Shown here piece after piece: positions 3,022 through 64,000 of a stretch of 64,000 bases of DNA. The stretch's first letter is position 1. Every line of letters starts with the position of its first letter. Location: sequence record OR083247.1; one strand, 5' to 3'. The DNA comes from Escherichia phage Bf23. A program made the position numbers and the translations under genes. The notes under the pieces are model-generated. The model searched no databases. It was not told the origin of the DNA and saw only the letters and a list, made by a program, of their open reading frames with translations.

Positions 3022-3514
3022 TACTCCAATTATTTTTCTAGATATTGATGGGGTGCTCAACTCGAGCATCTCCCATCACCATGCACCTGATGATGAAAAG
3101 ATTTTCTTTGGAAGTGACTGGGTCTTTAAACCGCTTCTCAAGGCTTTTCAGGACTTTATTCGTCCTTCTCCAATAATGATTGTTGGGGTATCTTCATGGT
3201 TCTCTGTTAGGAATGAGGTGGAGAACGTTCAGATTATGACCGGATTAGATCTTATCGATCGTTTTCTTGGTACAACGGATTTTACTGGTGGTGGATTATC
3301 TAGAGGTAATTCTGTTCTTCGCTTCGTTGAAAAGCATAAGCTCAAACATTGGTGTGTGCTGGATGACGCTGGTGCTATGATGTACCAGTATCCAACGGTT
3401 ATAGTCAACGGTAGAACTGGAATAAATCTTCAAGATTTAAGAGCTGTTAGCTATATGCTAGAATTTAGCCCAGATCTTGAAATGTGTAAATCCTTACAAC
3501 AATTTAAGGTGTAA
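3008..3514 (+). CDS. HAD-superfamily-like putative phosphatase/hydrolase
   Basis: N-terminal IIFLDIDGVLNS resembles HAD motif I (hhhhDxDGxh). Weak call. Confidence 0.45.
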   Translation: MKISNTPIIFLDIDGVLNSSISHHHAPDDEKIFFGSDWVFKPLLKAFQDFIRPSPIMIVGVSSWFSVRNEVENVQIMTGLDLIDRFLGTTDFTGGGLSRGNSVLRFVEKHKLKHWCVLDDAGAMMYQYPTVIVNGRTGINLQDLRAVSYMLEFSPDLEMCKSLQQFKV

Positions 3515-4480: not shown

Positions 4481-4964
4481 TGAGAGACATTAGTAAAAAT
4501 TGATTTTGCTAATTTTTCTTGTTTACAATCCGCGATACGGAACAGTTAGGCTGCCCCATTAAGGGTTGTTTTAACTATTACTAGTGTTTATATTGCATTA
4601 GTTAATCTTCAATTAAGTGATCTGTGTACCCTGAATTCGGAAAGGTAAATCCAAACCGTGCATATTTAGCTCGTTATATAGGCAGAGTTTTATATGGGGG
4701 TGCGAACGAAAAGAGCAGCGAATGGCGGCACGTACAGTAGTCACCTACCAATAGGATAGTGAGGACAAATAGAATCGGCTTAGCGGCCAATGACCTAGGT
4801 TCTATTCTGTATATGAGCGAAGAGAGCACAGCACTGAGATATGATAACTTATTCATATTGTTTGATGATAATTGATGTTTACGTAAATAGTAGTAATAGT
4901 TGTTCTATTCTTTCTGAATAGTCCTAAAGAAAAGATTTCGATTAACCAACATAGGAGTATTGTT

Positions 4965-7754
4965 GTGTTTTCTATCCTCCAAGGTCACGCCGGGTTTTCT
5001 CGTGATTTAGCAACAGGTATTTGGCGAGAAATCAAAGCGGAAGATTATACCTTTGCCAAGCGATTCTCGAAAGAGCATCCAGAAGGTAAACCAGCTTCTA
5101 TGCCCTTCAAATTTGATGTAATAGAAGAGCACGACCCACAAAGCCTTGCCGAAATGTTACCCCTTATGAGACGTTTAACGTCTGATCCTCATATCGTTGC
5201 GGTACGAGGTCGATGTCTTGCACCTAAAAATAATGTGCGGCGTAAGAAAGGTAACTTTAATGTATCTAATCCTAGTAATATTATTGCTATGGACGTGGAT
5301 GGTATCCTAGATACCGGTGGGTACGACAAATTTAATCTTGTTGGTATGGCTCGCCACATTATTAAGATGTTGAATAGTATTAGTGAGGATATGTTCCCTC
5401 TTGATGCAGGCTTTATAGCTCATGCATCGTCTTCGGCTGGGCTAAAACCAGGTATCCGAATGCACTTAATGCTAGAATCTAATGTCAAGGTAACTCAGGG
5501 TCAGCTAAAGTTCTTATTTACATCTATCAACGATAGTAGTAAGCAAAAATTTGGTTTTGATATTGCCGACCTAGCTTATTATTCATCTGTCCAGCTCCAC
5601 TATTTTGCCGACCCCTTATTTAGCGATGGTATTGTTGATCCGTTTAAAGCGGAGAGTAAGCCACGTCTGGTGTATGTTAAAGGTTCGAAAGTAAATTTGC
5701 CCAATAATCTGGTTGACTATGAAACAACTAGAGGGGAGTTTAAGGAAGAGTTTTATTCCTTACTTGATCAAATTAAAGGCAAAAAGATTGCTTCTGATAA
5801 AGTAGAAGAAACCATCAGCGAGTTAGAAGAGGCTGATGATGGGGTGTATTTGCGTATTATCCCCAAACTATACCATAGAGCATTAGAGGATGGGGTTGAT
5901 TTTGCATGGCTAGAACGTGAGATTAAACCAGCTTTATCTGAATATATTGCAACTAAAGATAACAGTCGTAATATTCAAGATTACTTTAATAACGGTCGTA
6001 AGCAGGCTCTCAAAGCGTTTGTTAATAATTCTAAACGTGAGATTCCATTAAATCTGAAAGGTGTTCCACTTAAGAAATTAGAAGTGGATTCTCCACCAGA
6101 AGTTCCATACCTGAAGATTAACATTGTGCCCCCCAAAGGCCATATAACATTTGTTAAGGCAAGTCTTGGTACTGGTAAAACTACGGCAGTAACTAAATGG
6201 CTGGACGCAGGTGTTCTTCCGGGCAACTTTTTAGCAGTTACAAATACTAGAGCACTGGTATCTTCAAATGCCAAGAAATTTAGTGCAGGACAATACGATA
6301 AGTCTGTAGATATGCTCAACTTTAAACGTGGAGCTATTGATCGTATGTCCACAACTATTCACTCTTTGCATAAGTTCAAAAGTTTTATTGGGCAAATAGA
6401 CACCATTTTTATTGATGAATGTGACGCTGTAATGAATGACCTATTATTCGCCCCTGTTGTTAAACAACGTCGCGAGTGTATTCAAGTTCTACGTGACATC
6501 CTCATGACAGCTAAGACTGTAATCTTATCCGATGGTGATATTAGCGCTGAGACGATTGAAGCATATGGTTCTCTAATTGATTTTGATAAACCAGTAGCAT
6601 TTTATAATCATCACCGTAAAATGCTGTCAAAAGCACACGCTTATGAGTTCCCTGATGAATCCAGTATTTGGGTTGCACTTCAGACTTCTCTAGAGATGGG
6701 TGAGAAATCTATTCTAGTATCTGATTGTGGTCCTGATGAGCTGAATGAGAAGGGTATGGCACTACGTCGTAATACTGGTGCGTTAGTTAAGGAAATCCAT
6801 TCAAACTCTACGTCAGATGTGGATATTCGACGTATTCTGGATTATACAACTAATGAGCTAATTGATCAACAAATTGATTGCTTATTATGTAGCCCATCCG
6901 TAACGAGTGGTGTTGACTTTAACTACTTTGATAACGTATTTGTTATTACTAGAACCAGTAATCAAGCGCCAAACATGCGTTTCCAAGCAATCAGGCGCGA
7001 CCGTGGTGCTCAGAATATCTATTATTTTATTGATAAATCCACTAGTGGGTTCTCCGCAGGTTCTGAACAATATAATATTGATGAAGGTTGGCTGGAGTTA
7101 GCACAGCAATTATACGCACGTCGCAGGGAACTGGAATCCAGGAACTATACTAGTACTTTACGTTATTACTTGCTTGATCAAGGTGCAACTATTGATATTT
7201 TCAGCGAAAGCTGGGGAACTATTGAAGGTGCTGGTAAAGAGTACACAGAAGAGCGAATCAAAGCTATTCTGCATTCAACTCCAGATTATTGTGCTCCACG
7301 TCATGCGGATGCGTATGAAGCTAAACTACTTCTTGTTCGCTATTATCATCTTGAGTCTATTAAAGATGTAACAGTTGAGCATGTTGAACAATATATCAAA
7401 GATAAACCGAATGATCGAGCTGCATTCTTCCATAAGATGCACGAGATGTTTTGGGAAGATATTAAGAAGTGTTCAAACGTCACTATCAAACCATTCATAG
7501 AAGCTCTGAAAGGTAAGAAGAAAGATTTCTTCCTTAAAACAGGTCAGAGTGCTAATGCAAAATATGCTAGAATGTATCTTGGTATGATGGGCATTGGTAA
7601 AGATATGAACACGGAGAATATTGTAGACTGGTATAGAACCTATTGTAAAATCGAGTGTATGCCAATTCCTTATAAGTTCATGACTGACGAGGAAAAACAT
7701 ATGCATGATGAAGCAATGTCAGAGCTAGGTGCTAGAAATGACAGTGAAGAATAA
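4965..7754 (+). CDS. Large P-loop ATPase, putative replication-initiation/origin-binding helicase-like protein (929 aa)
   Basis: GTG start with RBS AGGAG; Walker A SLGTGKTT, Walker B-like FIDECDAV. Function inferred from motifs and its position at the head of the replication module. Confidence 0.55.
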   Translation: MFSILQGHAGFSRDLATGIWREIKAEDYTFAKRFSKEHPEGKPASMPFKFDVIEEHDPQSLAEMLPLMRRLTSDPHIVAVRGRCLAPKNNVRRKKGNFNVSNPSNIIAMDVDGILDTGGYDKFNLVGMARHIIKMLNSISEDMFPLDAGFIAHASSSAGLKPGIRMHLMLESNVKVTQGQLKFLFTSINDSSKQKFGFDIADLAYYSSVQLHYFADPLFSDGIVDPFKAESKPRLVYVKGSKVNLPNNLVDYETTRGEFKEEFYSLLDQIKGKKIASDKVEETISELEEADDGVYLRIIPKLYHRALEDGVDFAWLEREIKPALSEYIATKDNSRNIQDYFNNGRKQALKAFVNNSKREIPLNLKGVPLKKLEVDSPPEVPYLKINIVPPKGHITFVKASLGTGKTTAVTKWLDAGVLPGNFLAVTNTRALVSSNAKKFSAGQYDKSVDMLNFKRGAIDRMSTTIHSLHKFKSFIGQIDTIFIDECDAVMNDLLFAPVVKQRRECIQVLRDILMTAKTVILSDGDISAETIEAYGSLIDFDKPVAFYNHHRKMLSKAHAYEFPDESSIWVALQTSLEMGEKSILVSDCGPDELNEKGMALRRNTGALVKEIHSNSTSDVDIRRILDYTTNELIDQQIDCLLCSPSVTSGVDFNYFDNVFVITRTSNQAPNMRFQAIRRDRGAQNIYYFIDKSTSGFSAGSEQYNIDEGWLELAQQLYARRRELESRNYTSTLRYYLLDQGATIDIFSESWGTIEGAGKEYTEERIKAILHSTPDYCAPRHADAYEAKLLLVRYYHLESIKDVTVEHVEQYIKDKPNDRAAFFHKMHEMFWEDIKKCSNVTIKPFIEALKGKKKDFFLKTGQSANAKYARMYLGMMGIGKDMNTENIVDWYRTYCKIECMPIPYKFMTDEEKHMHDEAMSELGARNDSEE

Positions 7755-53977: not shown

Positions 53978-54215
53978 TATTATAGTTGCTTTTATTATCG
54001 GGATAATCGCGGGAGTTTTCGGAATGACTGCGGCTATTAACAAGCATCGTAAGTATACTGCGGAAGTATCGCGGGAGATTGCGGAGAGGGAGCGGAAGTT
54101 TGATGAGAAACGTGCGGAGTTTGAGCGGGAGTGGTCGGATGGATCTCGGGCGTCGCGGAAGAGATTTCGTGAGTTTAGACCTGAACATCGGTTTGATGAC
54201 CCTTCTATGCGCTAA
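53970..54215 (+). CDS. Small membrane protein with highly charged E/R/K-rich C-terminal helix (81 aa)
   Basis: 8-nt overlap with the upstream ORF; N-terminal helix IIVAFIIGIIAGVFGMTAAI, tail REIAERERKFDEKRAEFEREW; GAG/CGG-rich codons. Confidence 0.45.
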   Translation: MFSIIVAFIIGIIAGVFGMTAAINKHRKYTAEVSREIAERERKFDEKRAEFEREWSDGSRASRKRFREFRPEHRFDDPSMR

Positions 54216-54379
54216 TTAACTTTTTGCCAAATTTCATAAGATTACACATGAGGATGTGCTCACTGCCTCCGGCGAAAATACTTAGTCTGCTAACCGCCAC
54301 ACCCGTTATTATTACCATGCTAACTGTTTCACCCTGCAACCATTTTAATTGCAAGGTGAAACAATTTCAACCTTAATTA

Positions 54380-55114
54380 TTATGCGACTTTTAGTTTTTC
54401 AATATATTGTTGCGGGCTGCAACTATATTCTGCGCGTTCTTCCTCGGTCATACTTTCCCAACATAATTGCAAGCGATCGGCTAGGAACTGATAATCATTA
54501 TCATCGTCGAGCGATTCATCGATAAAGGTTTCACCTATCAATGTCACGCCGATTGATAGAATATCATTAATAGCTTGTGCGTCCAGCGTTTTAAACCCGT
54601 ATGATGCCGCCGCCGATAGCACGCCCTTATGATCATCAATCATCGTGAAATCAGCGTTTGGATATAGCTGTTTAAATAACTCAAAGTAATGGCTTTTATA
54701 TATAGCATCTTTACTGTGGTATATTTCGCTAACTTTATCAGCCTCAAAATATTTGTGTAGTGTGTCGCGGGAAAATACACGGATATTACTATCCCCACGC
54801 CCTCGCAGTCCTTGTTTGCGTAGGTAATAATAATCTGACTTACTCATCAGTCGAGCGGTACAAATAATGTTTAACGTGTTAACGTCATTCATACATTGGC
54901 GCATATATGTAACAAGCGGCAATAGTGTGTCCTGCATTATTAAATCATGTTTACATGCTTCATTCTTATATTTATTTAAATCTAAATTACCATCGTTATC
55001 AAAGCAAGGCGCTACGCGATGGAATGAGTTAACGATAGTGCCGTCCAGATCCCAGATCATGACGCGGGAAATATGCGGGAAATTACGGGTAATATTCGTT
55101 TTAACTTGATTCAT
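54380..55114 (-). CDS. dmp: 5'-deoxyribonucleotidase, HAD family, T5 Dmp-like (244 aa)
   Basis: HAD motif I in VMIWDLDGTIVNS; size and position among pre-early-type genes. Confidence 0.65.
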   Translation of the reverse strand: MNQVKTNITRNFPHISRVMIWDLDGTIVNSFHRVAPCFDNDGNLDLNKYKNEACKHDLIMQDTLLPLVTYMRQCMNDVNTLNIICTARLMSKSDYYYLRKQGLRGRGDSNIRVFSRDTLHKYFEADKVSEIYHSKDAIYKSHYFELFKQLYPNADFTMIDDHKGVLSAAASYGFKTLDAQAINDILSIGVTLIGETFIDESLDDDNDYQFLADRLQLCWESMTEEERAEYSCSPQQYIEKLKVA

Positions 55115-55188
55115 TTTGTTACGTTCTCCATTAAAGGGATTAAATTAAATTAATCCAGCCCACTGGATGGGCTGGGCTATTCCAGCTA

Positions 55189-55584
55189 TTAAAGACCATA
55201 AGCCAACGCATCAGCGATGACGGTAATATCTTCACCCGATACATCGGAACGGATGCCCGCGCATGTAAATACTTTTGCGCTCATTAGCTGATCATCAAGG
55301 CAAGCGGGACAAGGGGCAACTACTGCGAAAGCTAAACCTGATTTTACGGCATCGATGATAATCGTTTCTTGTTTCACCGTGTCAATATAAACGCCTTTCG
55401 CCTTGATGCGGCTGGATAACTTGCCCGTGGTATAGGCGAAAGTAGTGATCTGTAGCGCCTCGTTAAACTCGATTAAATCATCGACAACGTGACCGGCCTC
55501 AACGTGATACCGCTCACCATTAGAATAAACTAGGACGATAGAAGACTGAGCGCGATCGAATGGAATACGGTTAGAAATAGCCAT
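55189..55584 (-). CDS. Hypothetical protein (131 aa)
   Basis: ORF in the - strand pre-early chain; GC-richer codons. Confidence 0.5.
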   Translation of the reverse strand: MAISNRIPFDRAQSSIVLVYSNGERYHVEAGHVVDDLIEFNEALQITTFAYTTGKLSSRIKAKGVYIDTVKQETIIIDAVKSGLAFAVVAPCPACLDDQLMSAKVFTCAGIRSDVSGEDITVIADALAYGL

Positions 55585-55653
55585 GTTTATAACTCCAATT
55601 AATTTAATAAACTTTTATAGCGGCGGTATATTTCAACCGCCAACCTGATTTAT

Positions 55654-57318
55654 TTACGCAAAAAATTTACCATTCTTAAAGTCAATCAAGGTGCGCTGAC
55701 CGTTTGCATAGGTAATAACATGCGTTTGTGTCCAGCTTGACGCGCCAACGTTGTAACCCATGTCCAGACTACCAGACACGCCAGCGGTGTATACGCCGCC
55801 GTAAATACTGGCGGTATGAGTGTGCCCCGTGTTCAGTTTACCCAATTTCTTAAATTGCTTCGGATTGCCACGGCTCCCGTTAATGCCATTGTGACCGTGT
55901 ACGCCGCATTCAATGCCTGCAATCTTGAAAGATTGGTCAGTCGTTAGGAAAATGGCGTTAAACTCGCAACCTGCAACCTTGCGCAACGCATAATCTAGCA
56001 CGTTGAAAGTATCGTCTTTTTCTGCAATAGCTCCATAAATCGCGGCATTAAGGCGGTGATATAGTTCGGCGTTGGCTGGATCGTCTTTGATGTTAGCATT
56101 ACGATCATCCAGCCAACGGGATAGCGCCAGATCGTGGTTTGATTCTACGATGATCGTTTGAGAAAAATCGCGCTCCATTGATTCCAACACGCGACCGGTA
56201 TCGATAAGATCATCCAGAACTTTATCACGTCCGGCGGCGTATTGTTTTGCTAGGAATACACCCGAAGCGCGATTGTGATGGTTGCGTGATGTAAAATCAT
56301 GCACGTCATGGACAAATTGATATTTTGGTTTAAGAATATCAAGCAAGCTATTTTCGCCAGCCCATGACGCAGCGGCGCAATCATCATCCAGTTTTTCAGC
56401 GTGGACGTCGCCATATTGTAAACCTAAAACGTGCCCCGTTGTTTCATAGCATCCGGCGGGAGTAGCGCAAACATTCAGATCGTAAAAAACGCCGCTTTCG
56501 TCCATAGTTTCAAGCTGGCGCACAAAAAACTCACCGTCCTCGTCGAACTCGACAACAAGCGCACCGAAATTATGCAACGCTTCCGCTTTCTGTCCTGCTT
56601 TCTGCTGGATGTAGTTTTTTAGCGTTGCCGTGCCGGTTGAATACATACGGCGCACTACTTCACCTTTTAAAGCTGGGACGCTCTCGGCGGTGATTTTAGC
56701 CGCTCCAATTGCCAGACCTTCAAGGTTGAGCGCGGTTGCAGTTTCAGCAAATCCAGAAAGCGGATAATCTGCGGTAGGTAAAACGTTAATTTCAGCCATG
56801 AAAGCAAAGCGGCGATTATTCAAAAACACGTTTTTATTGCAGATATATTTGTCAAATGCGGAATCATATTTGATTCCTTCGGCGCCCTCGCCATTTTGAA
56901 AACCGTTTTTGTTATAAATAAACTTGCTAACCAGCAAATCAGCGCCGATATATTTAGCAAATTGCTCCAGTGAGGCTAAAAAGTTTTTATGCGGGAAAGT
57001 ATTATTCTGAATCGACGTAATAATAAAGCGTTTACCCTGCTTTACTTCCCAGCTTTCAACCGTGCTAGAAACAATCCCCGCCGCTTCTGGGCGCTCATCG
57101 TTTTTAATGGCTTTTGCTACTTTCGCCGCTTTCGGTTTAGCTGGTTTATTTGCTTCCAACCAATCACAAATCGCGGTCGAGTGTTTTGTAGTATCATAGA
57201 CCGCCTTTGATATATCGTCGCAGACTTCCAGTTTAGTGGCGCGCAGACGTTTACCATAGAAATTAAAGTCAGCGGCCATTTTCAGGATAACGGTTTGTTT
57301 TTCTGCGGAAATAATCAT
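55654..57318 (-). CDS. A1: Pre-early protein A1-like (554 aa), putative metallophosphoesterase-type nuclease
   Basis: Size close to that recalled for T5 A1; metallophosphatase-like His clusters (..GVHGHNGINGSRG.., ..GHTHTASIYGG..); neighbours dmp and A2-like genes. Confidence 0.65.
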   Translation of the reverse strand: MIISAEKQTVILKMAADFNFYGKRLRATKLEVCDDISKAVYDTTKHSTAICDWLEANKPAKPKAAKVAKAIKNDERPEAAGIVSSTVESWEVKQGKRFIITSIQNNTFPHKNFLASLEQFAKYIGADLLVSKFIYNKNGFQNGEGAEGIKYDSAFDKYICNKNVFLNNRRFAFMAEINVLPTADYPLSGFAETATALNLEGLAIGAAKITAESVPALKGEVVRRMYSTGTATLKNYIQQKAGQKAEALHNFGALVVEFDEDGEFFVRQLETMDESGVFYDLNVCATPAGCYETTGHVLGLQYGDVHAEKLDDDCAAASWAGENSLLDILKPKYQFVHDVHDFTSRNHHNRASGVFLAKQYAAGRDKVLDDLIDTGRVLESMERDFSQTIIVESNHDLALSRWLDDRNANIKDDPANAELYHRLNAAIYGAIAEKDDTFNVLDYALRKVAGCEFNAIFLTTDQSFKIAGIECGVHGHNGINGSRGNPKQFKKLGKLNTGHTHTASIYGGVYTAGVSGSLDMGYNVGASSWTQTHVITYANGQRTLIDFKNGKFFA

Positions 57319-57414
57319 AGTAATAAAGCTCCATTAAAGGGATTAAAAACGTTTGTTATTGGCAAATATTGCCAAATATAACGCCTTGAATAATAGGCGT
57401 TATAATTTGCAACA

Positions 57415-57612
57415 TTAATTTAAAGGCATAAGGCTAGAACTAACACCACAAGCAACGGCGGCAATAAAACAAATCAGACCTAAACGCTTTGCCAATTTAG
57501 ACTTACGCTTAAAATAATATGAATCTAAATCATTTTGAAAGTATGCAAATAATAATGAGGCCGCCATAATAAATAAGCCTAGAATTAACGATTCAGTGGG
57601 GTAAAAGATCAT
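57415..57612 (-). CDS. Small membrane protein (65 aa; start moved to ATG 57612 with RBS GGAG)
   Basis: Two hydrophobic helices; the upstream in-frame extension to 57660 would read through a perfect 20-bp palindrome. Confidence 0.4.
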   Translation of the reverse strand: MIFYPTESLILGLFIMAASLLFAYFQNDLDSYYFKRKSKLAKRLGLICFIAAVACGVSSSLMPLN

Positions 57613-57669
57613 TTTAATAACTCCAGTCAAAGGGAAATTATAGTGGGGAATATTCCCCACTAATTAAAT

Positions 57670-58086
57670 TTATTCACCTGCGGCTTGTTTTACTTCATCG
57701 GCAACGCCTAACAGTTGCGCCACGGCGTCCAGCGTTTCTAACTTTGCGCTTTCCAGACTTGCCAAATCGTCGGCGTCTTTGATAATGCCGGAATCAATAG
57801 CATGTTTAGCGATAACGCGTACATAATGAGCTTTGCGAATTGAACTACCGCCGCCAACTTTGCGCGGCTTATCGCTTTTCTGATACGCTTTCGCGCTGGT
57901 CAATTTTGAGCGAACAGACACGGGAGAAGCCGCGCCAACTGTTTTAGCAATCTCTTTCAGGCCGTCGCTGTTGGCGAACTCCAAGCCGTTTTCGTTGATC
58001 AACTGTTGATACATGGTAACAGCCTGTTGGGTGTTTTCTTCATTCCAAGCAAATTTTGCGGATTTTTCGGTTTTAACGTTAGCCAT
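57670..58086 (-). CDS. A2: Pre-early protein A2-like, putative DNA-binding protein (138 aa)
   Basis: Size and position relative to the A1-like gene; Lys/Ala-rich. Confidence 0.55.
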   Translation of the reverse strand: MANVKTEKSAKFAWNEENTQQAVTMYQQLINENGLEFANSDGLKEIAKTVGAASPVSVRSKLTSAKAYQKSDKPRKVGGGSSIRKAHYVRVIAKHAIDSGIIKDADDLASLESAKLETLDAVAQLLGVADEVKQAAGE

Positions 58087-58184
58087 GATTATAACTCCTA
58101 TTGAATTAATTTAAGGGATAAGATTAACATAATGTTAATCGTTATATACCCCAAACTACTGGGGTATATAAAGTTAACACTAAG

Positions 58185-58436
58185 TTATAAAACAGCTTCC
58201 CATTTTTCGTTGCGTTGAACAACCTTTACAACGTCGCCGGATTTAACGCGAACGCTAAAAACGGTTTTGCCGTTGTTACTACGTTCATTTTCAGCGTATA
58301 CCGCGTCGATTGTATCAAACGGCATAAGCGCCACACCTTTAATGCGTTCGGTTTTTCCGGTTAATTCGTCCGTTTTAGTAACGAAAGGAATAAAAACGGA
58401 TTGACCAATTTTAGGCGCGGTAATAACGTTTTTCAT
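58185..58436 (-). CDS. Hypothetical protein (83 aa)
   Basis: ORF with RBS AGGAG; leader contains a 10-bp-stem hairpin. Confidence 0.45.
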   Translation of the reverse strand: MKNVITAPKIGQSVFIPFVTKTDELTGKTERIKGVALMPFDTIDAVYAENERSNNGKTVFSVRVKSGDVVKVVQRNEKWEAVL

Positions 58437-58663
58437 AGTATAAACTCCTAGTTATTTGGGGATTGTTCCGCATTACCTGCTAGAAAGTAGCAGGTAATAA
58501 GAAAAAATCCGCTCGCCAATATAATCAATTTAAAGAACTCCACTCAGGCCGCTATATCCCAGTTAGGGGGCGGGACACATTATGGTAAGTGCCGACCGTC
58601 AAATTGTATCAAGTTATCGCTCTTATCGAACTGGGTACATCTTAAAGCCTATCGGCTAGGGTG

Positions 58664-58867
58664 TCAAACAATTTTTTGCAGTTTTTTATGATTTTCTTTC
58701 AGGTCAATCATAATATTTCGCCAGATCATTTCCAGACCTTGCTGGCGGCCTTTCTTGTACTGCGTGAATCTATATCTTACGGATTGTTGAGCTACTGTCA
58801 ACAATTTTTTAGTAGTAACATCTAATTTTTTAGCTGGTTTACCAGTGATCAAAAGCGTTTGTTTCAT
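58664..58867 (-). CDS. Small basic protein (67 aa) bracketed by 24-bp inverted repeats
   Basis: Lys/Arg/Gln-rich ORF with RBS AAGGA; inverted repeats at 58633-58654 and 58904-58927. Confidence 0.4.
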   Translation of the reverse strand: MKQTLLITGKPAKKLDVTTKKLLTVAQQSVRYRFTQYKKGRQQGLEMIWRNIMIDLKENHKKLQKIV

Positions 58868-59320
58868 ATCTGCGATTCCTTATATAATTGATAAGTTTAC
58901 CGCCGATAGACTTTAAGATGTACCCAATTTTTAAAGAGCGTGGCGGTAAACTTCCCGCCGTGTAGTTCGTCATTGCCGCCCTACGAGATAAATAATAGGG
59001 GATTCCCAAAAATGGCGCAACCTTATTTTTGTAAAGAAACGTAAAGAAAGCAAATACTCGCAAGGTGTCCGGCGATTGCCCAAGTTTAAAGGAAACGGGC
59101 GCACGAATACCATAAAACCCAGCAGGTTGGCAAGTAATTTTTTCATTTATATTTGCCTTACCCTACTTGACAAAATCTAAAAAGCTCGTGGTAGCGATAA
59201 ACGAGGGTAGGCAATGCAATGGCCTGGCTAAAACTTTCATCGCGTTCTAGGGCGTTTTAGGCGCATTCTAGCCTTGTTGATAACTTATCCCCAGAAGCAA
59301 AAATGAAATTTTCCTAGTTA

Positions 59321-59351
59321 TCCACTTGACTTTTATTTTCCAGTGGATAAC
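59321..59351. promoter_or_regulatory. Inverted pair of DnaA-box-like sequences
   Basis: AGTTATCCACT..AGTGGATAACT around a 14-bp AT-rich centre. Confidence 0.5.
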
Positions 59352-59494
59352 TACTTATTTTATGAAATAAATTAATTGACTTTTATTTGTTAGTATGCAT
59401 CGGAAAGATAGCAGACTAATAATTGCTAGGATGATAATCATGCTGGTGGATTGTAACGGCTTAAACTATCAGCGGACTATTAATCACGGAAAAT

Positions 59495-59545
59495 CTCGTT
59501 AGCTAACTAACTATTTCATGATGTATAATATACATATAAATTAAT
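59495..59545 (+). promoter_or_regulatory. Early-family sigma70 promoter facing the + strand cassette
   Basis: TATAAT (59524-59529) with the family leader ATATAAATTAATGAGAAATAA; -35 is weak (AGCTAA). Confidence 0.5.
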
Positions 59546-59633
59546 GAGAAATAATAATTATAATAAATAATAACTACAGTAAATAATAACTATAAGAAAC
59601 TATCGGCCTAAGTGAGAACCACTATCATTTAAG

Positions 59634-59741
59634 TTATCCACAAGTTTATTAACAGCACAAAATGATTTGACACGATAGGCGGCGATATAAAGACTTATCC
59701 ACAGACTTATCCACAGGTTATCCTACTGTATAAATATACAG
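59634..59741. promoter_or_regulatory. Cluster of three consensus DnaA boxes plus a LexA-box-like palindrome
   Basis: TTATCCACA at 59634-59642, 59695-59703 and 59707-59715; CTGTATAAATATACAG (CTGT-N8-ACAG) at 59726-59741. Confidence 0.6.
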
Positions 59742-60007
59742 GGTAAATGGGTAGTGTTAACAACTGCAATCAATTTTAAGCGGCCTAAAACGCTTTCTAA
59801 CGAGCTAAATGCGGTGGGGTAATATTAAAGTAAAGCCTTCACCCGTCGCCCTGGTGGCTTCGCCGTGTTTTGCTCTTTACTATACCGCTGCGCGGTTAAC
59901 ATAAAAATAAGCGTTAGGCAAGGAAAATAAAAAGGTAAAATAATATTTGCCCCTAGAAAGAAAATACCTTTATCATTCACTCACCGATTAACGAGGGAGG
60001 CCAACAA

Positions 60008-61000
60008 ATGAGGCTATATAAACCAGATAACGCAACCGTCTTAAAAGGTGCGCTGCGTAACCTGCTGGACGGTAGCAGAACAACCAGCATTAAACACTTT
60101 GTTAACAAGGCCGAAGATATTCACCAAAACTTTTTTGATGATTTCGATGCCTATGATATGAGTAGTTTTTTACAACTGTATAAGCAAGGGGCAACGCTTG
60201 TTTTGTATAATCGAGATAATCACCTGCTTACTAGTAGGGGGCCGGATACCGATTTCATAATTGTAAAAGGTAGCACAGTAAAAGCCTATGACACTGGAGC
60301 GGGCTTAGAAGTTTTTTCAATAGAAAACTATGAAGCCAACCCCAATGATCTTTATGACGTTGAAAACTTTCTTGATTCATTTTGGCGTTATTTATCCGTT
60401 GGCTGGAATCGGTCAATTGGTGACGGGTATCGTCTGGCGGCTGTAATGACCTTTGATGATGATGGCAATTTTTTGCTACCGTCGGAAGTATACCCATACG
60501 TATATGATGGGGATATAGAAAGCGCGGGCTTTTCTTTCTGGAAAGAGGGGAATCAGCCTATTGACAACACGGAAAAACATGCTGTAAATTCTAACACTCA
60601 AAGCGTTAATACTCAAATCACTGAAAACAAAGGAAAAAACACCATGACCAAGATCGCTAATATTGTTGCCGCTAATAAATCCGCTGTTGTAAACGCTGCA
60701 AAACTGGAAGCGGGTAAAATTGCACTGACTCAAATTACGAAAGTAGCGGCTAAAAAAGCGCCGTTCATGATCAAAGGCTATATTGATACGCCGATTGGTC
60801 GAGTAGTGATTGCCAACCTGCTTAGCGTAGCGGTTGACCAGTACGCCCCGAGTAACCAGAAAGCGAAAGCGGTAGCAGGGGCAGCTATGGAAGCGGCAAT
60901 GCTAGAAATGGTGCAAAGTTTTAACATCGCTGAGATGATCGATGAAATGGTAAAAGGTATCGATATTTCTACTTTCACCGTTAACAACGAAAGCGAGTAA
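60008..61000 (+). CDS. Hypothetical protein (330 aa)
   Basis: ORF with RBS GAGGGAGG; Ala/Lys-rich C-terminal half; no motif. Confidence 0.5.
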   Translation: MRLYKPDNATVLKGALRNLLDGSRTTSIKHFVNKAEDIHQNFFDDFDAYDMSSFLQLYKQGATLVLYNRDNHLLTSRGPDTDFIIVKGSTVKAYDTGAGLEVFSIENYEANPNDLYDVENFLDSFWRYLSVGWNRSIGDGYRLAAVMTFDDDGNFLLPSEVYPYVYDGDIESAGFSFWKEGNQPIDNTEKHAVNSNTQSVNTQITENKGKNTMTKIANIVAANKSAVVNAAKLEAGKIALTQITKVAAKKAPFMIKGYIDTPIGRVVIANLLSVAVDQYAPSNQKAKAVAGAAMEAAMLEMVQSFNIAEMIDEMVKGIDISTFTVNNESE

Positions 61001-61065
61001 TAATATTAAGCGGGGATTGTTACCCCGCTTTAATGTTCCCTTGTTAATTAATAGGAGGCTAATTA

Positions 61066-61560
61066 ATGGCTGAAGAAAAATATGGCTTCTCACTGGGAGA
61101 AGTGAGCACGGCAAAACATGATATGATCATTTTGGTCGATTGCCATACTGGCTATTGCGGAGAAGGTTGGACGGAGGAACATTTTGTTCCAGCTGGCTGT
61201 AATCTGGACGCTTTCGCTCAGGAAATGGCTATTGATAATGCTTCTCGTTTTGGTAGCGATGGTTACGAAGACGAAGAAACTGGCGAATGGTATGAAAATG
61301 AAAACGTATATGCAAGCCTTTATCATTATCAGCTAAGTAAATCCGGCACATATGTAAACGGCGGCGATCCTATTAATTCCGTCATGAAATTAATTATTAA
61401 ATATGGCGGAGTAGAGATAGTTGGTAACAAAGCGGTAATATACGCAAACCGATTAAAACAGCTTGTTTATATTCCTGATAGTACCCGATGGGATGAATAT
61501 GCTGTTTTGCATGACGAATTGAAACGATGTTTCAATATTGAAACCTTACAAGTAGTCTAA
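61066..61560 (+). CDS. Hypothetical acidic protein (164 aa)
   Basis: ORF with RBS AGGAGG; no motif. Confidence 0.5.
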   Translation: MAEEKYGFSLGEVSTAKHDMIILVDCHTGYCGEGWTEEHFVPAGCNLDAFAQEMAIDNASRFGSDGYEDEETGEWYENENVYASLYHYQLSKSGTYVNGGDPINSVMKLIIKYGGVEIVGNKAVIYANRLKQLVYIPDSTRWDEYAVLHDELKRCFNIETLQVV

Positions 61561-61664
61561 TGTAAAGTTTTGTAAAGGTCGCCTTTTATGGTGGCCTTTT
61601 TTGTTATAATGCTTTTACACCAAAACGGTGGATTGAAAATTTCCCAAAAATTTGGAGGCTTAAA

Positions 61665-61895
61665 ATGGTTGCATATTCTTCTTCTGACGCTCTTTTCACT
61701 GGAAAAGGCTGGGTATCAAATCGCTGGATCATTCATGAAATGGTGCAAGAATACGGCATTGCTAAAACTTACACTACCATCCAGGCGCTTTATGATAATG
61801 ATCAAATTGATCAGCAAACGGCTGGTTTTTTGCTGGATACCCTGAAAGCGGAGCACTGTACTAAAAAACAAGCCGCCAAAATTGTTTTAATGTAA
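61665..61895 (+). CDS. Hypothetical protein (76 aa)
   Basis: ORF with RBS GGAGG upstream. Confidence 0.4.
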   Translation: MVAYSSSDALFTGKGWVSNRWIIHEMVQEYGIAKTYTTIQALYDNDQIDQQTAGFLLDTLKAEHCTKKQAAKIVLM

Positions 61896-61941
61896 TTAAT
61901 AACGGGGCGTTACTTTCGCCCCGCTAACTAGGAGAATGAAA

Positions 61942-62091
61942 ATGGTTATTTTTCGAGCTATTCTAGCAGGTATCTTGGGCGCTATTTTATCCCTTTTTGC
62001 TATAGCTTTTGGCGTTCACGCGGTTACTATTGGTGCTGGCATTGCTGTATTTTCTTATCTGCTGGGCTGCATGACTAGTAAAGGAGAATAA
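61942..62091 (+). CDS. Small hydrophobic membrane peptide (49 aa; not in the ORF track)
   Basis: RBS AGGAGAA then ATG; MVIFRAILAGILGAILSLFAIAFGVHAVTIGAGIAVFSYLLGCM.. Confidence 0.35.
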   Translation: MVIFRAILAGILGAILSLFAIAFGVHAVTIGAGIAVFSYLLGCMTSKGE

Positions 62092-62093
62092 AA

Positions 62094-62306
62094 ATGATCC
62101 GCAACGTTTCTCTTGCACGTTCGAAAGGCTTTAAGCTGGTGGATGTTAACACGTTCGAGCGGGAAGATTGTAAAATCGAATATGTAGCACGTAATAAAAA
62201 TGCCTTTCGTGTTACCGAGAAAAAATTCGATAAGCGGGGCAACGTGATAGCTGAAACGGTTAAACATTTTGCCACCTTTTACGCTGCATTTCGTGGGGTA
62301 CTATGA
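62094..62306 (+). CDS. Hypothetical basic protein (70 aa)
   Basis: ORF with RBS AGGAGAA upstream. Confidence 0.4.
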   Translation: MIRNVSLARSKGFKLVDVNTFEREDCKIEYVARNKNAFRVTEKKFDKRGNVIAETVKHFATFYAAFRGVL

Positions 62307-62427
62307 AAAGCGTTATTGTTGTTATCCTTGCAATGGTTGGAGGTTTTACCGCCACCTTATTTAAGAATGACCCCCTTTTACTGGGGGTTTTTATGCTTTT
62401 ATCTGGATACCTGATTGGGAGGTTATA
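62303..62427 (+). CDS. Small membrane peptide (41 aa; not in the ORF track)
   Basis: ATGA overlap with the upstream ORF; MKSVIVVILAMVGGFTATLF..LLGVFMLLSGYLIG. Confidence 0.3.
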
Positions 62428-62429
62428 AA

Positions 62430-62774
62430 ATGGTTATTTATGAAGGCAACCGCTTTGTTACTAATTGCCGTCCGGCATTACTAGCAAACTACTTAAATCA
62501 GCTTTCCCCAGCTTATAAGGGCGTCATTAATATTTATGAAGGCAAGGCGCATTATAAAATTAATGCGGTCGTTGCCCGTGAACTAGCGTTTCAATTTTTG
62601 ACCTTTGCATCTTGTGATATTCAGGTCATGGGTGAGGCGTTAATTGCAGAAAATGAAGATGATTTTATTAATATTTTTCGCAAAGTATGCACCGAGCGCC
62701 TGATAATGAAAGGCGCATATATTCAATCCACTGCGGATAGTATTGAAACAGCGTTTCGAAAGGTGGCACAATGA
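62430..62774 (+). CDS. Hypothetical protein (114 aa; start at ATG 62430 after RBS GGGAGG)
   Basis: ORF 62415-62774 in the track, trimmed to the ATG with a proper RBS. Confidence 0.45.
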   Translation: MVIYEGNRFVTNCRPALLANYLNQLSPAYKGVINIYEGKAHYKINAVVARELAFQFLTFASCDIQVMGEALIAENEDDFINIFRKVCTERLIMKGAYIQSTADSIETAFRKVAQ

Positions 62775-62874
62775 AATTATATATTTTCGCGGGTAATGTT
62801 GAGGCTGCAAATGATTCCGCTGGTGGCGATAACGTTCGCCACTATTGGCAAAAATATATTTACTAGGCGTTATT

Positions 62875-63069
62875 ATGAGCAATAAAATTATTATAACTAA
62901 AACTACCACAATGGTTGACGTTTTTTATGTGCCCGATACGCTGGAAAACCGGCGAGCGGTCGAGCGGGGCGAATATGATAGCGTTATTTATGATGCCGAT
63001 GGTTACTACCGGCATTTGGTCGATTCCTATGGGGAGGAGGAGAAGATCACGCATCAATTACCGGACTGA
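62875..63069 (+). CDS. Hypothetical protein (64 aa from ATG 62875)
   Basis: ORF 62845-63069 in the track begins at a TTG; the internal ATG is preferred. Confidence 0.4.
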   Translation: MSNKIIITKTTTMVDVFYVPDTLENRRAVERGEYDSVIYDADGYYRHLVDSYGEEEKITHQLPD

Positions 63070-63210
63070 TAACAAGCGGGGAGCAGATCCCCGTTTTTCA
63101 CGCCTCCAGTTAAATACCCCTTTGTTTTAGTATCCCCACCAAAATTAAACGCGTTAGAATGCGATTCAGGACGTTTTAGGCGTATATTAGAATTATTCAC
63201 TACGTAGGAA

Positions 63211-63320
63211 TACTGTATAAATATACAGTAGAATAACTTGGGGATAAGTCTGTGGATAACGCCTCAAAATGGCTGGGATTCTGTCAAGTCAAATCGTGCT
63301 GTTAATAAGTCTGTGGATAA
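63211..63320. promoter_or_regulatory. LexA-box-like palindrome plus two consensus DnaA boxes, in inverted orientation relative to 59634-59741
   Basis: TACTGTATAAATATACAGTA at 63211-63230; TGTGGATAA (reverse complement of TTATCCACA) at 63251-63259 and 63312-63320. Confidence 0.6.
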
Positions 63321-63351
63321 CTTAAATAACAGTGTTTCTCACTTCCGTTTT

Positions 63352-63507
63352 TAAATGCGAATCATTATCATTCGCATTTCACTATCTAACCGATAATCAT
63401 TCCACTTTTTAAATGAGATTGATTCTCATTTCACTTTCTAAATGCGAATTATTATCATTCTCATTCCGCTTTTTAAATGAGAATGATTCTTATTATCATT
63501 CTCATTT
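63352..63507. repeat. Cluster of four related palindromic repeats (AAATG(C/A)GAAT..ATTC(G/T)CATTT units)
   Basis: Four units, each an inverted repeat with 10-13-bp arms around a short AT spacer, at about 63352-63380, 63411-63432, 63440-63468 and 63474-63507. Confidence 0.7.
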
Positions 63508-63531
63508 AGCGCAGGGCAATTGCCCTGCGCT
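63508..63531. repeat. Perfect 24-bp GC-rich palindrome containing two GCGC tetramers
   Basis: AGCGCAGGGCAATTGCCCTGCGCT, followed by TTTTG on the + strand. Confidence 0.7.
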
Positions 63532-63533
63532 TT

Positions 63534-63756
63534 TGTGCAAATCCGACATTTGCTCCAAGGGTTACGTGCTGGCGTATATGTGCAAATCCGACAATTTTTG
63601 GTAGTGTGCAAATCCGACCCGAAAAATTTTTATAGTGTGCGAATCCGACAATGAATTTTCCTAAAAACTCCAGCAATCACGAACTGCGTTCGAATCCTGT
63701 GGGATATGTGCAAATCCGACACGGTTTTTCTAGGGTTAAGATGTGCGAATCCGACA
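63534..63756 (+). repeat. Iteron-like array: six direct copies of TGTGC(A/G)AATCCGAC(A) with irregular AT-rich spacers
   Basis: Copies at 63534, 63579, 63605, 63636, 63707 and 63742, plus one degenerate copy near 63688; spacers 11-56 bp, usually ending in a T-run. Confidence 0.75.
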
Positions 63757-64000
63757 AGATTTTTGTGACTTCGATGGGAGGGTGTGTGATTGTATAGGTT
63801 TGAGGGGAAGATGAGAGAGCGAGAAAAATTTGAGGGGATAGAAGGATGTGGGCGCAGGATTGGTGCGGAGCACCTGATTTGCGGGGATTTTGGGGAAGAG
63901 TTGAGATAATTTGGGAAGATTTGAGATAGGTGCAGAAAAAGTAAAATTTTATTAGCAAAATGGGGCAAAATAGCTTGACAAGTGAAAATTCTTGTGGATC

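Follow-up and report, generated by a model that had tools for sequence, protein, structure and literature searches.

Two modules that combine DnaA boxes with a LexA-like palindrome bracket a block of genes in the 64-kb stretch of phage DNA analysed here (the window), and the question is what sites of this kind do on the DNA of the phage. The window belongs to a T5-like phage, and the region displays 89%–92% DNA identity to T5-like phages. The stop of T5 after 8% entry, and its restart, have been a question since the 1960s, and papers of 2023 and 2026 cite only repeats, palindromes and DnaA boxes. A first-pass annotation of this DNA had proposed that host factors act at both ends of the gene block. 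This reading is partly supported, and the published T5 repeat/DnaA feature went unrecognised in it.

The repeat arms and their counterpart in T5

The two arms (Table 1) form a 147-nt imperfect inverted repeat with 76% complementarity. The right arm shows 93.8% identity over 161 nt to the T5 sequence AY692264. In T5 (L001) the corresponding segments at positions 1501–1631 and 4814–4944, as read from the sequence, are 131 bp each and extend from the 16-mer described below to AGTGTTTCTCACT. The T5 counterpart of the region is in the left terminal repeat, beside the annotated injection stop signal. Location, arm homology and the layout of eight DnaA boxes place the pair in the IRC-spacer-IRD / IRD'-spacer-IRC' set of the first-step-transfer (pre-early) DNA; gene 011 and the A2 operon flank one arm, and the other follows gene 017. 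Further descriptions of the T5 first-step-transfer inverted repeats are said to have been given by Heusterspreute in 1987, Wang in 2005 and Davison in 2015, and the DnaA boxes of the T5 repeat have reportedly been known since 1987. The 131-bp inverted repeat pair was given the above names by Davison (2020; bioRxiv 10.1101/866236). The repeat with its DnaA boxes is an already published T5 feature that is tied to the injection stop signal.

There are six exact copies of TTATCCACA in the window and five of these are in the two modules (59634, 59695 and 59707 on the + strand; 63251 and 63312 on the − strand). Variant boxes TTATTAACA (59646, 63300) and TTATCCCCA (63239) complete four pairs with 3-bp gaps (59634/59646, 59695/59707, 63239/63251 and 63300/63312), i.e. 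eight DnaA or DnaA-variant boxes. The five exact boxes fall within two stretches of ~90 bp, as in a DnaA cluster defined by several TTATNCACA within ~100 bp. Davison (2020) described eight DnaA/DnaA-variant boxes in 3-bp-spaced pairs and gave a DnaA-based arrest model, in which the boxes are proposed to be part of the injection stop signal. According to Davison (2020), the origins of T5 map close to the middle of the genome, and the genes for replication have not yet entered the cell.

Table 1. Repeat arms, cassette genes and neighbouring signals, in positions of the window
Feature	Position	Strand	Remarks
Left arm, T5 "IRC-spacer-IRD"	59610..59756	.	between divergent A2-A1-dmp operon and cassette; inverted repeat I1; homologous to T5 L001 ~1501–1631
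Outer DnaA pair, left: TTATCCACA, 3-bp gap, TTATTAACA	59634..59654	+	pairing fits Davison 2020 description
Inner DnaA pair, left: TTATCCACA, GAC, TTATCCACA	59695..59715	+	exact-box search
Left LexA-type operator TACTGTATAAATATACAGGG	59724..59743	.	21.9 bits; 10 bp from DnaA pair
Conserved inner block GCCTAAAACGC..TTCTAACG	59783..59809	.	inverted repeat I3; third conserved repeat element, cassette side
Cassette promoter, pre-early	59924..60002	+	homology to T5 6411–6489 (TTGCCC-18-TATCAT)
Cassette gene 1, 330 aa, DUF7566	60008..61000	+	79% identical to T5.011
Cassette gene 2, 164 aa, PHROG 6741	61066..61560	+	not in T5; found in My1 and in Sugarland-type phages
Cassette genes 3–9	61665..63069	+	products of 31 to 114 aa, itemised below
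Cassette gene 3, 76 aa	within 61665..63069	+	T5.012-like
Cassette gene 4, 51-aa hydrophobic two-TM peptide	61936–62091	+	T5.013-like
Cassette gene 5, 70 aa	within 61665..63069	+	T5.014-like "endonuclease nicking abasic sites"
Cassette gene 6, 41-aa hydrophobic peptide	62303–62428	+	ORF list
Cassette gene 7, 114 aa	within 61665..63069	+	T5.015-like
Cassette gene 8, 31 aa	62771–62866	+	ORF list
Cassette gene 9, 64 aa	within 61665..63069	+	T5.017-like
Rho-independent terminator closing cassette	63077..63099	+	hairpin found; T5 terminator annotated at homologous place
Right arm, T5 "IRD'-spacer-IRC'"	63198..63344	.	where the non-coding injection-stop region begins
Right LexA-type operator TACTGTATAAATATACAGTA, injection-stop side	63211..63230	.	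26.4 bits; 19/20 consensus matches; 50 of 51 related loci carry a site here
Inner DnaA pair, right: TTATCCCCA, 3-bp gap, TTATCCACA	63239..63259	−	exact-box search
Outer DnaA pair, right: TTATTAACA, 3-bp gap, TTATCCACA	63300..63320	−	inverted repeat I4 and box search
Remaining injection-stop repeat region	63345..63760	.	81–87-nt direct repeats, AT-rich palindromes, six copies of TGTGCAAATCCGACA; T5 "injection stop signal" feature

A LexA-type motif in each arm

The 16-mer CTGTATAAATATACAG is found as two exact copies (59726–59741 and 63213–63228) and nowhere else in the window, and each copy is 10 bp from a DnaA box pair; the two occurrences and the adjoining DnaA boxes had been recorded in the first-pass annotation. 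When up to two mismatches are allowed, the observed count was reached in none of 100 shuffles (expected 0.09). The 16-mer is a near-palindrome whose reverse complement differs only at two central bases, and because of this it was found as a direct repeat (D10). The two modules had been described as mutually inverted. This is true of the arms but not of the 16-mer, as both copies read the same on the + strand.

Scores come from a matrix for which 18 E. coli SOS boxes (PMC3009722 Table 4) were used. The 18 E. coli sites, scored leave-one-out, range from 6.6 to 24.5 bits, and the right box exceeds all of them; the maximum in 50 shuffles of the window is 18.8 bits, which is below both boxes. The phage boxes display the CTGT-N8-ACAG palindrome of a LexA operator with an AT-rich core and scores that reach the range of proven sites, and the sequence is a single mismatch away from the tisB/istR-2 box TACTGTATAAATAAACAGTA. 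Each arm carries a predicted site, near-perfect by motif, for LexA, the repressor of the host SOS response. There is no mention of a LexA box in Davison (2020) or in the searched T5 papers of 2023–2026 (the primary reports of 1987–2015 may differ), and this reading of the T5 repeats seems not to have been reported before.

Conservation and position of the motif

The sequence CTGTAT-N4-ATACAG adjoins DnaA boxes in T5, Sugarlandvirus, Myunavirus, Novosibvirus, three lineages of Vibrio phages and two metagenomic lineages with an A2 protein of only 32%–40% identity. It is kept in nine clades, with the hosts Escherichia, Salmonella, Klebsiella, Pectobacterium, Proteus and Vibrio. When the nine clades are aligned, strong conservation is confined to two blocks, the LexA-type box and the DnaA box; a GCGTTTTAG-type block of the inner element is present in all clades as well. 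The first-pass annotation had named a lack of box conservation as grounds for abandoning its reading. Instead, the boxes are conserved family-wide and fit the consensus sites of LexA and DnaA of the host.

All sampled clades of Demerecviridae, from phages of E. coli to those of Vibrio, have a box of this type on the injection-stop side of the cassette. At least one site of at least 17 bits is present within 9 kb upstream of A2 in 50 of 51 IMG/VR loci, and two or more in 40 of the 51. No site with such a score was found in ~0.39 Mb on the opposite side of A2.

The central four bases vary (AAAT, ATTT, ATCC, ATCT, AAAC, TAAT), and their asymmetry changes direction freely from one close relative to the next, which fits a symmetric dimer as the reader of the box. 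That the box stays on the host consensus while A2 diverges to 32% identity suggests that the reader is probably a host protein rather than a phage protein.

The cassette and its inversion

Nine pre-early open reading frames on the + strand occupy positions 60008–63069 between the arms. As had been annotated, they are transcribed opposite to dmp, A1 and A2 (54380–58086, − strand), and the tiny membrane peptides attributed to the cassette correspond to two small hydrophobic open reading frames (genes 4 and 6 in Table 1). The known cassette promoter is ~185 bp downstream of the left LexA-type box, and known promoters are 185–270 bp from boxes of this type. The right box is past the cassette terminator and has no gene behind it, only non-coding repeats. 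A conserved sigma-70 promoter that overlaps the left or the right box was not found. With no conserved promoter across the boxes, the SOS control that had been proposed for the cassette from the presence of LexA boxes is without anatomical support.

In Sugarlandvirus and Myunavirus, the cassette proteins of 330, 164 and 64 aa have collinear homologues on the A2 strand, with the inner flanks swapped. In the Klebsiella and Pectobacterium relatives the cassette has been inverted, and the breakpoints are inside the repeat. An inverted cassette is found only in Sugarlandvirus, the locus L048 and Myunavirus (A2 55%–64% identical); in 37 of 37 Tequintavirus/Epseptimavirus loci the cassette is opposite to A2. 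A search of eight of the nine cassette proteins (all but the 31-aa product of 62771–62866) with Pfam and PHROGs showed no recombinase, transposase, integrase or invertase domain. Since all 37 loci share one orientation and no recombinase was found in the eight proteins, the cassette is not an invertible switch, and its inversion is, as judged from these genomes, an evolutionary event. Thus the suggestion of an invertible segment holds for evolution, where inversion occurred at least once (Sugarlandvirus, Myunavirus), but not for a switch; that the segment is exchangeable is borne out by the variable cassette content among relatives. The Type 2/3 phages have been reported to show a "replacement by ORFs read in the opposite direction". 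By the present comparison this reported replacement is an inversion of homologous genes, which corrects the published view of a simple replacement.

Proposed role in DNA entry

The favoured explanation, to which we give a probability of roughly 0.45, is that the window carries a copy of the T5 repeat whose LexA/DnaA arrays act in cis on DNA entry or its arrest. Actual binding of LexA and DnaA, and any role in arrest, are inferred. Each arm would be a compact array of sites for proteins that pre-exist in the uninfected cell, with four DnaA boxes in two pairs, the LexA-type operator 10 bp inward, and the conserved block on the cassette side. LexA and DnaA would load on the arrays as the DNA enters the cell, and the loaded arrays would hold or mark the end of the first-step DNA ~0.2–0.3 kb before the arrest point, rather than act as promoter operators; the A1/A2 proteins of the phage would subsequently overcome this block. 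The array on the injection-stop side is the constant one and would be the important one, and the A2-side copy would be a weaker, dispensable duplicate whose inverted homology has let the cassette be swapped and once inverted.

A cis-acting role of the T5 repeats in transfer arrest at ~8% of the genome is a proposal in the literature only. A published viable T5 mutant deleted from hegG to 017 gives only small plaques; this deletion should remove the left module, so that pairing of the two modules would not be essential. The closest relatives, ESCO30 and ESCO40, are among the T5-like phages that were isolated on DH5alpha (recA1), and LexA cleavage is therefore not required for the cycle. LexA is cytoplasmic, and we know of no established way for proteins bound on DNA that has entered to halt further entry.

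A more specific form of this proposal, in which abundant host repressors (LexA, with DnaA and perhaps also Fur at the neighbouring palindromes) use the stop signal as a landing pad and bind its near-consensus operators on the entering DNA, is quite improbable. The bound proteins would serve as a brake or anchor at ~8%, with no phage protein synthesis, until A1/A2 dismantle it or cut past it.

Alternative explanations

The LexA boxes might be classical operators on a promoter of the cassette, of A2-A1-dmp or of a small RNA, so that pre-early expression is tied to the SOS state of the host. The motif quality equals that of strong SOS operators, and the left box is between divergent transcription units, where a leftward promoter-like TTAACA-16-TATATT overlaps it in the window; this site, however, is not kept even in T5, and the characterised cassette promoter is at the distance given above. 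The strongest and universally conserved box is the right one, which is past the terminator, and in Proteus phage 1 a distance of ~270 bp separates the box from the strong promoter of the A2 operon. Within minutes T5 breaks down the host DNA, which could plausibly induce SOS, but derepression is impossible in the recA1 host on which relatives were isolated. For the small-RNA variant, an Rfam search of the region gave no RNA family. Taken together, classical operators are a doubtful explanation, and we consider them improbable. A reading of the palindrome by the phage protein A2 or an A1/A2 complex, as the release site of second-step transfer or as a cut site, with the likeness to an SOS box a coincidence or mimicry, is possible but unlikely. 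A site that co-evolves with a protein at 32%–64% identity would hardly stay on the exact 20-bp host consensus, including the flanking A and T, and the box adjoins sites for another host protein, DnaA. A2 is a DNA-binding protein without which second-step transfer does not take place, and it is conserved throughout these phages; Davison lists palindromes of the region as candidate A1 cleavage sites (the restriction-palindrome idea). In accordance with this reading, there are extra half-degenerate copies ATGTATAAATATACAG of 12–14 bits, which are poor LexA sites yet are conserved in several lineages, and the AAAT/ATTT centre is more uniform than LexA alone needs. The arrest occurs without phage protein synthesis (Davison 2020), so at least the stop cannot need A2.

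That the repeats have no protein-binding function of their own, and are recombination scars or substrates at the edges of an accessory cassette, a degenerate mobile element or an invertible switch, is very improbable. Cassette content does vary widely, as Davison also describes (at least 80% of the region is covered in only 130 of 531 records of the present comparison), and the breakpoints of the inversion are within the repeat. The genes between the arms are nevertheless far less conserved than the non-coding arms themselves, in which specific host-factor motifs of 9 and 16 bp are kept across lineages with no other DNA similarity, and distant lineages keep a lone array on the injection-stop side with no partner. 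No target-site duplication was found in the sequence flanking the arms; the domain search and the single orientation in the 37 close relatives also argue against this explanation.

Significance and comparison with known systems

LexA is dispensable in a sulA background, and there are strains of the lexA(Def) and lexA(Ind-) types. DnaA is an essential protein that cannot easily be removed; this makes LexA an easily tested host candidate for the injection pause. Editing of the T5 terminal repeat now works, according to a recent publication. With a family-wide, consensus-grade LexA-type site 0.2–0.3 kb before the arrest point, a descriptive model becomes a simple genetic and biochemical test. If the landing pad were true, a virulent phage would employ the SOS repressor structurally, in its DNA-entry programme, and not for transcriptional regulation. 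Even if LexA is irrelevant, no element of the stop region is more constrained than this strictly conserved palindrome, which offers a target for mutagenesis.

The cassette resembles segments of the Hin/Gin/Cin type and mobile cassettes bounded by inverted repeats, in that inverted repeats bracket a block found in both orientations across genera. It differs from the Hin/Gin/Cin type in that no recombinase was found in the eight cassette proteins searched, there is no orientation polymorphism in the 37 relatives, and the sites are those of host factors, not recombinase core sites.

Known LexA operators overlap and repress a promoter, and they also occur in colicin operons and in the temperate phages CTXphi and GIL01. 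The phage boxes share with E. coli SOS boxes the 20-bp palindrome TACTGTAT-N4-ATACAGTA and a score at the top of the range of genuine sites; in contrast, they have no overlapping conserved promoter, one is behind a terminator in non-coding DNA, and they belong to a strictly virulent phage, which destroys the chromosome of its host.

The datA and DARS loci of E. coli are DnaA-box clusters outside origins, and the uvrB control region has a DnaA box and a LexA box. The phage arrays are similar in their closely spaced consensus TTATCCACA, apparently for DnaA loading and not origin firing, beside a LexA-type site as at uvrB, but they are on incoming DNA, are duplicated in inverted form and have no known link to replication.

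The closest likeness is to the T5 IRC/IRD repeats, which agree in locus, element order, the four 3-bp-gap DnaA pairs, the 61-bp pair-to-pair spacing and the bracketing of genes 011–017, at ~90%–94% DNA identity. There is no structural difference between the two, and the present analysis adds a reading of the inner 16 bp of IRD/IRD' as a LexA-type operator.

Arms of the inverted repeat

The 16-mer CTGTATAAATATACAG is present in exactly two copies in the window with no third, and with two or fewer mismatches allowed its count is matched by none of 100 shuffles. Five of the six exact TTATCCACA DnaA boxes in the 64 kb adjoin these two copies, and variant boxes TTATTAACA and TTATCCCCA complete four DnaA pairs, each with a 3-bp gap. 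This confirms the first-pass annotation of a 16-mer occurring exactly twice beside consensus DnaA boxes, an arrangement far beyond chance. A repeat finder displays the two modules as the arms of a 147-nt imperfect inverted repeat (76% complementary). The modules had been described as inverted relative to each other; this is correct for the DnaA boxes and flanks but not for the 16-mer, which reads identically on the + strand in both arms. It is a near-palindrome, i.e. its own reverse complement differs solely at the two central bases. Derivation of the arm from an E. coli genome or from a plasmid is rejected, as the 147-nt sequence has zero matches among 5,426 E. coli genomes and 72,556 plasmids.

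Positions of features in the window
Feature	Position	Strand	Remarks
dmp	54380-55114		opposite to cassette
A1	55654-57318		opposite to cassette
A2	57670-58086		opposite to cassette
Near-consensus DnaA cluster	59273-59353		~300 bp left of left arm
Left arm	59610-59756
Left LexA-type box	59724-59743		16-mer at 59726-59741, central bases 59733-59734
Third conserved block, left	59783-59809
Cassette	60008-63069	+	nine ORFs, opposite to dmp, A1, A2
164-aa gene	61066-61560
51-aa ORF	61936-62091	+	short, very hydrophobic
41-aa ORF	62303-62428	+	short, very hydrophobic
31-aa ORF	62771-62866
Hairpin, then T-run	63077-63099		closes cassette
Third conserved block, right	63148-63186
Right arm	63198-63344
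Right LexA-type box	63211-63230		16-mer at 63213-63228, central bases 63220-63221
AT-rich palindromes	63351-63375, 63444-63503		just past right arm
TGTGCAAATCCGACA repeats	63534-63758		six, irregular spacing

LexA-type boxes in the arms

A symmetric weight matrix was built from 18 SOS boxes that precede UV-induced genes of E. coli (PMC3009722 Table 4). It gives the right site, TACTGTATAAATATACAGTA, 26.4 bits compared with 27.8 for the consensus, which is higher than all 18 E. coli sites scored leave-one-out (6.6–24.5 bits), and this site differs from the tisB/istR-2 box by one mismatch. The left site reaches 21.9 bits; shuffling the window 50 times gives 18.8 bits at most, and elsewhere in the window the maximum is 14.3 bits. 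The putative LexA operator within the repeats is real as a motif, family-wide, and unreported as far as searched.

The terms "LexA" and "SOS" are both absent from the text of Davison 2020, and likewise from a 2023 BF23 paper, a 2026 preprint on T5 pre-early genes and a 2026 PNAS paper on Tequintavirus first-step arrest. The 2023 and 2026 papers describe the stop region in terms of repeats, palindromes and DnaA boxes, with the mechanism unknown. A full-text literature search for LexA together with T5-like phages, or for the 16-mer itself, yielded nothing relevant. The LexA reading is apparently new, provisionally, as the search excludes Davison 2015, Wang 2005 and Heusterspreute 1987.

Phylogenetic conservation of the boxes

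Representatives of other Demerecviridae lineages were retrieved via A1 and A2 homology. The motif CTGTAT-N4-ATACAG is found beside DnaA boxes in T5, Klebsiella Sugarland-type phages, Pectobacterium phage My1 and Proteus Novosibvirus, also in Vibrio phages VPT02, phi 3 and 70E37.1, and in metagenomic lineages where A2 is only 32–40% identical. The box centre is variable (AAAT, ATTT, ATCC, ATCT, AAAC, TAAT) and the arms and flanking A/T are constant; for these predicted operators this agrees with how information is distributed along LexA sites. When the arm on the injection-stop side is aligned across nine clades, only aCTGTAta..TATaCAGt and cTGT.gATAAc are strongly conserved.

Sites of at least 17 bits are present within 9 kb upstream of A2 in 50 of 51 IMG/VR loci (at least one site) and in 40 of 51 (at least two); the single locus lacking a site has <2 kb of upstream sequence. 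On the opposite side of A2 there are none in ~0.39 Mb. Of the two sites, the one on the injection-stop side is constant and the stronger. Its A2-side counterpart, typically CCCTGTAT... with a score of 21.9 bits, is weaker and in some phages degenerate. The central bases are AA or TT and vary among close relatives (loci L008–L058) and between the arms: the stop-side/A2-side pair is AA/TT in 18 loci, TT/TT in 10 and AA/AA in 8. The perfectly palindromic consensus centre, TA, is absent from all Tequintavirus-type sites examined.

Reader and function of the palindrome

Three arguments point to a host repressor as the reader of the palindrome. The sites hold the host consensus while A2 diverges to about one third identity, the boxes adjoin sites for another host protein, DnaA, and the central AA/TT (positions 8–9) switches freely, both among close relatives and from one site to the other, as a symmetric dimer predicts. 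A phage protein may nonetheless be the reader, or A2 may compete with LexA, given that extra copies starting with ATGTAT in some lineages are recurrent although they score only 12–14 bits, and that the box centre is more uniform than LexA alone requires.

If host LexA is the reader, its role does not appear to be that of an operator at a promoter. A promoter consensus scan of positions 59200–64000 and of the Proteus phage 1 counterpart gave no conserved sigma-70 promoter over the boxes, and a promoter-operator reading is rejected on this basis. One good promoter-like match, a leftward TTAACA-16-TATATT, lies over the left box and is missing in T5. The characterised promoter upstream of gene 011 is ~185 bp downstream of the left box, and the universally conserved right box comes after the cassette terminator and is followed by non-coding repeats only. 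In Proteus phage 1 the box is ~270 bp from a strong A2-operon promoter. This anatomy is unfavourable to the earlier proposal that SOS controls expression of the cassette, and a transcriptional link to SOS is unsupported. An RNA element is rejected as well; an Rfam search of 54000–64000 at a permissive E-value gave no family in the region, only sub-threshold chance matches (e.g. PrrF, 31.5 bits against a threshold of 90).

Ahead of the A2 operon in Proteus phage 1 (locus L004), the strongest promoter-like site is TTGACA-16-GATAAT at 7198–7225. A consensus DnaA box, TGTGGATAA at 7216, covers its −10, which points to DnaA as a regulator of pre-early transcription in that lineage.

DNA entry and arrest

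Transfer is arrested without phage protein synthesis (Davison 2020), and pre-existing host proteins are therefore natural candidates. Davison (2020) proposed that membrane-bound DnaA leads to arrest of the entering DNA. The T5 right box is at ~9.41 kb and the estimated shear point at ~9.6 kb; the right array thus enters just ahead of the arrest. The favoured inference, unproven, is that the arrays form a cis-acting landing pad for host proteins that would act on DNA entry or arrest, with putative LexA binding joining that of DnaA on the incoming arrays. To our knowledge, no described mechanism would allow proteins sitting on the cytoplasmic side to stop DNA entry.

Isolation of close relatives on the recA1 strain DH5alpha means that LexA cleavage cannot be needed. 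On the same ground, the idea that the block is released when LexA cleaves itself once host DNA has been broken down is rejected as a requirement. A T5 mutant deleted from hegG to 017 is viable with small plaques and should have lost the left arm altogether. Tolerance of this expected loss would fit with the distant lineages, which display the injection-stop-side array only. An Mre11/SbcD-like role of A1 in clearing protein blocks is speculation: A1 has zero Pfam matches, and its "metallo-phosphatase" label comes only from the annotation of others. For the unsolved T5 injection stop, the LexA box supplies a host candidate that is readily approached by genetics.

Neighbouring elements

The AT-rich palindromes AAATGCGAATCATTATCATTCGCATTT and GAGAATGATTCTTATTATC show 3–5 mismatches to the 19-bp Fur-box consensus. 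Fur-like matches in the window are concentrated in the first-step DNA (21, compared with a mean of 5.8 in block shuffles), and the stop region may carry predicted sites for a third abundant host repressor, Fur. Comparable palindromes are present in distant lineages (~3025–3050 in locus L002, and downstream of the modules in loci L057 and L058).

A third conserved block, of the GCGTTTTAG / CTAAAACGC type, is found in all clades compared, 25–45 nt from each box on the cassette side. The "spacer" separating the DnaA pairs has a conserved TTGAC. The DnaA cluster to the left of the left arm is the counterpart of the T5 "Repeat Region 1" and consists of TTATCAACA, TTATCCCCA and two TTATCCACT, the latter two in a 15-nt hairpin-like inverted repeat. 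The TGTGCAAATCCGACA repeats are the "DRD" repeats of T5, recognisable versions of which (GGTGCAAATCC, GGTGCGAATCCGACAAG) are present in the stop region of Vibrio phage VPT02.

Cassette content and orientation

A cassette opposite to dmp, A1 and A2 with at least two tiny membrane peptides had been described, and the nine + strand ORFs agree with this, those of 51 and 41 aa being short and very hydrophobic. T5 genes 011, 013 and 015, reported to be toxic in E. coli, correspond to the 330-aa, 51-aa and 114-aa ORFs. The 164-aa gene is absent from T5 and present in chee24-like phages, My1 and Sugarland-type phages.

Cassette content is highly variable, with at least 80% of the region covered in just 130 of 531 records; according to Davison, T5 genes in Type 2/3 phages are "replaced by other" ORFs. 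Homologues of the 330-aa, 164-aa and 64-aa cassette proteins in Sugarlandvirus and Myunavirus are collinear, yet on the strand of A2. The inner-flank types "aggccgcttaaaat..." and "aggacgttttaggcgtatattag..." have exchanged sides between Sugarland-type phages and T5 while the outer flanks have not moved, which places the inversion breakpoints inside the repeat. Plus/plus BLAST matches are rejected as proof of swapped flanks, since inverted-repeat symmetry predicts them. The T5 orientation also occurs in Proteus and Vibrio phages and is therefore probably the ancestral one.

A mobile element or invertase is rejected. Transposase and recombinase domains were not detected by Pfam/PHROGs in the eight cassette proteins scanned (all but the 31-aa ORF), the window sequence has no target-site duplication around the arms, and close relatives show a single orientation (37 of 37 Tequintavirus/Epseptimavirus loci). 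With this uniform orientation and no encoded recombinase, the event is a rare evolutionary inversion via inverted homology, not a programmed switch. The proposed exchangeable or invertible segment is supported on the evolutionary scale only, in the variable content and the inverted Sugarlandvirus and Myunavirus cassettes.

Relationship to the T5 first-step-transfer repeats

The region is 85–92% identical to several hundred T5-like phages. The homologous stretch of T5 is the left terminal repeat, i.e. the first-step-transfer DNA, and is annotated with genes T5.011–T5.017, a promoter upstream of 011, a terminator and an "injection stop signal". Davison (2020) placed IRC-spacer-IRD, an inverted repeat of 131 bp, within "Repeat Region 2" and its partner IRD'-spacer-IRC' at the beginning of "Repeat Region 3", and counted eight boxes, DnaA or DnaA-variant, that stand in pairs 3 bp apart; this repeat structure is kept in 25 T5-like phages, and the first DnaA boxes were reported in 1987. 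The identical 16-mer is present in T5 at both corresponding places. Counted from the 16-mer to AGTGTTTCTCACT, each T5 arm is 131 bp long, which by our own reading makes the 16-mer the inner end of IRD/IRD'. In structure this rediscovers the first-step-transfer inverted repeats of T5 with their DnaA boxes: the repeat, its DnaA boxes, the cassette and the cassette variability had all been described before.
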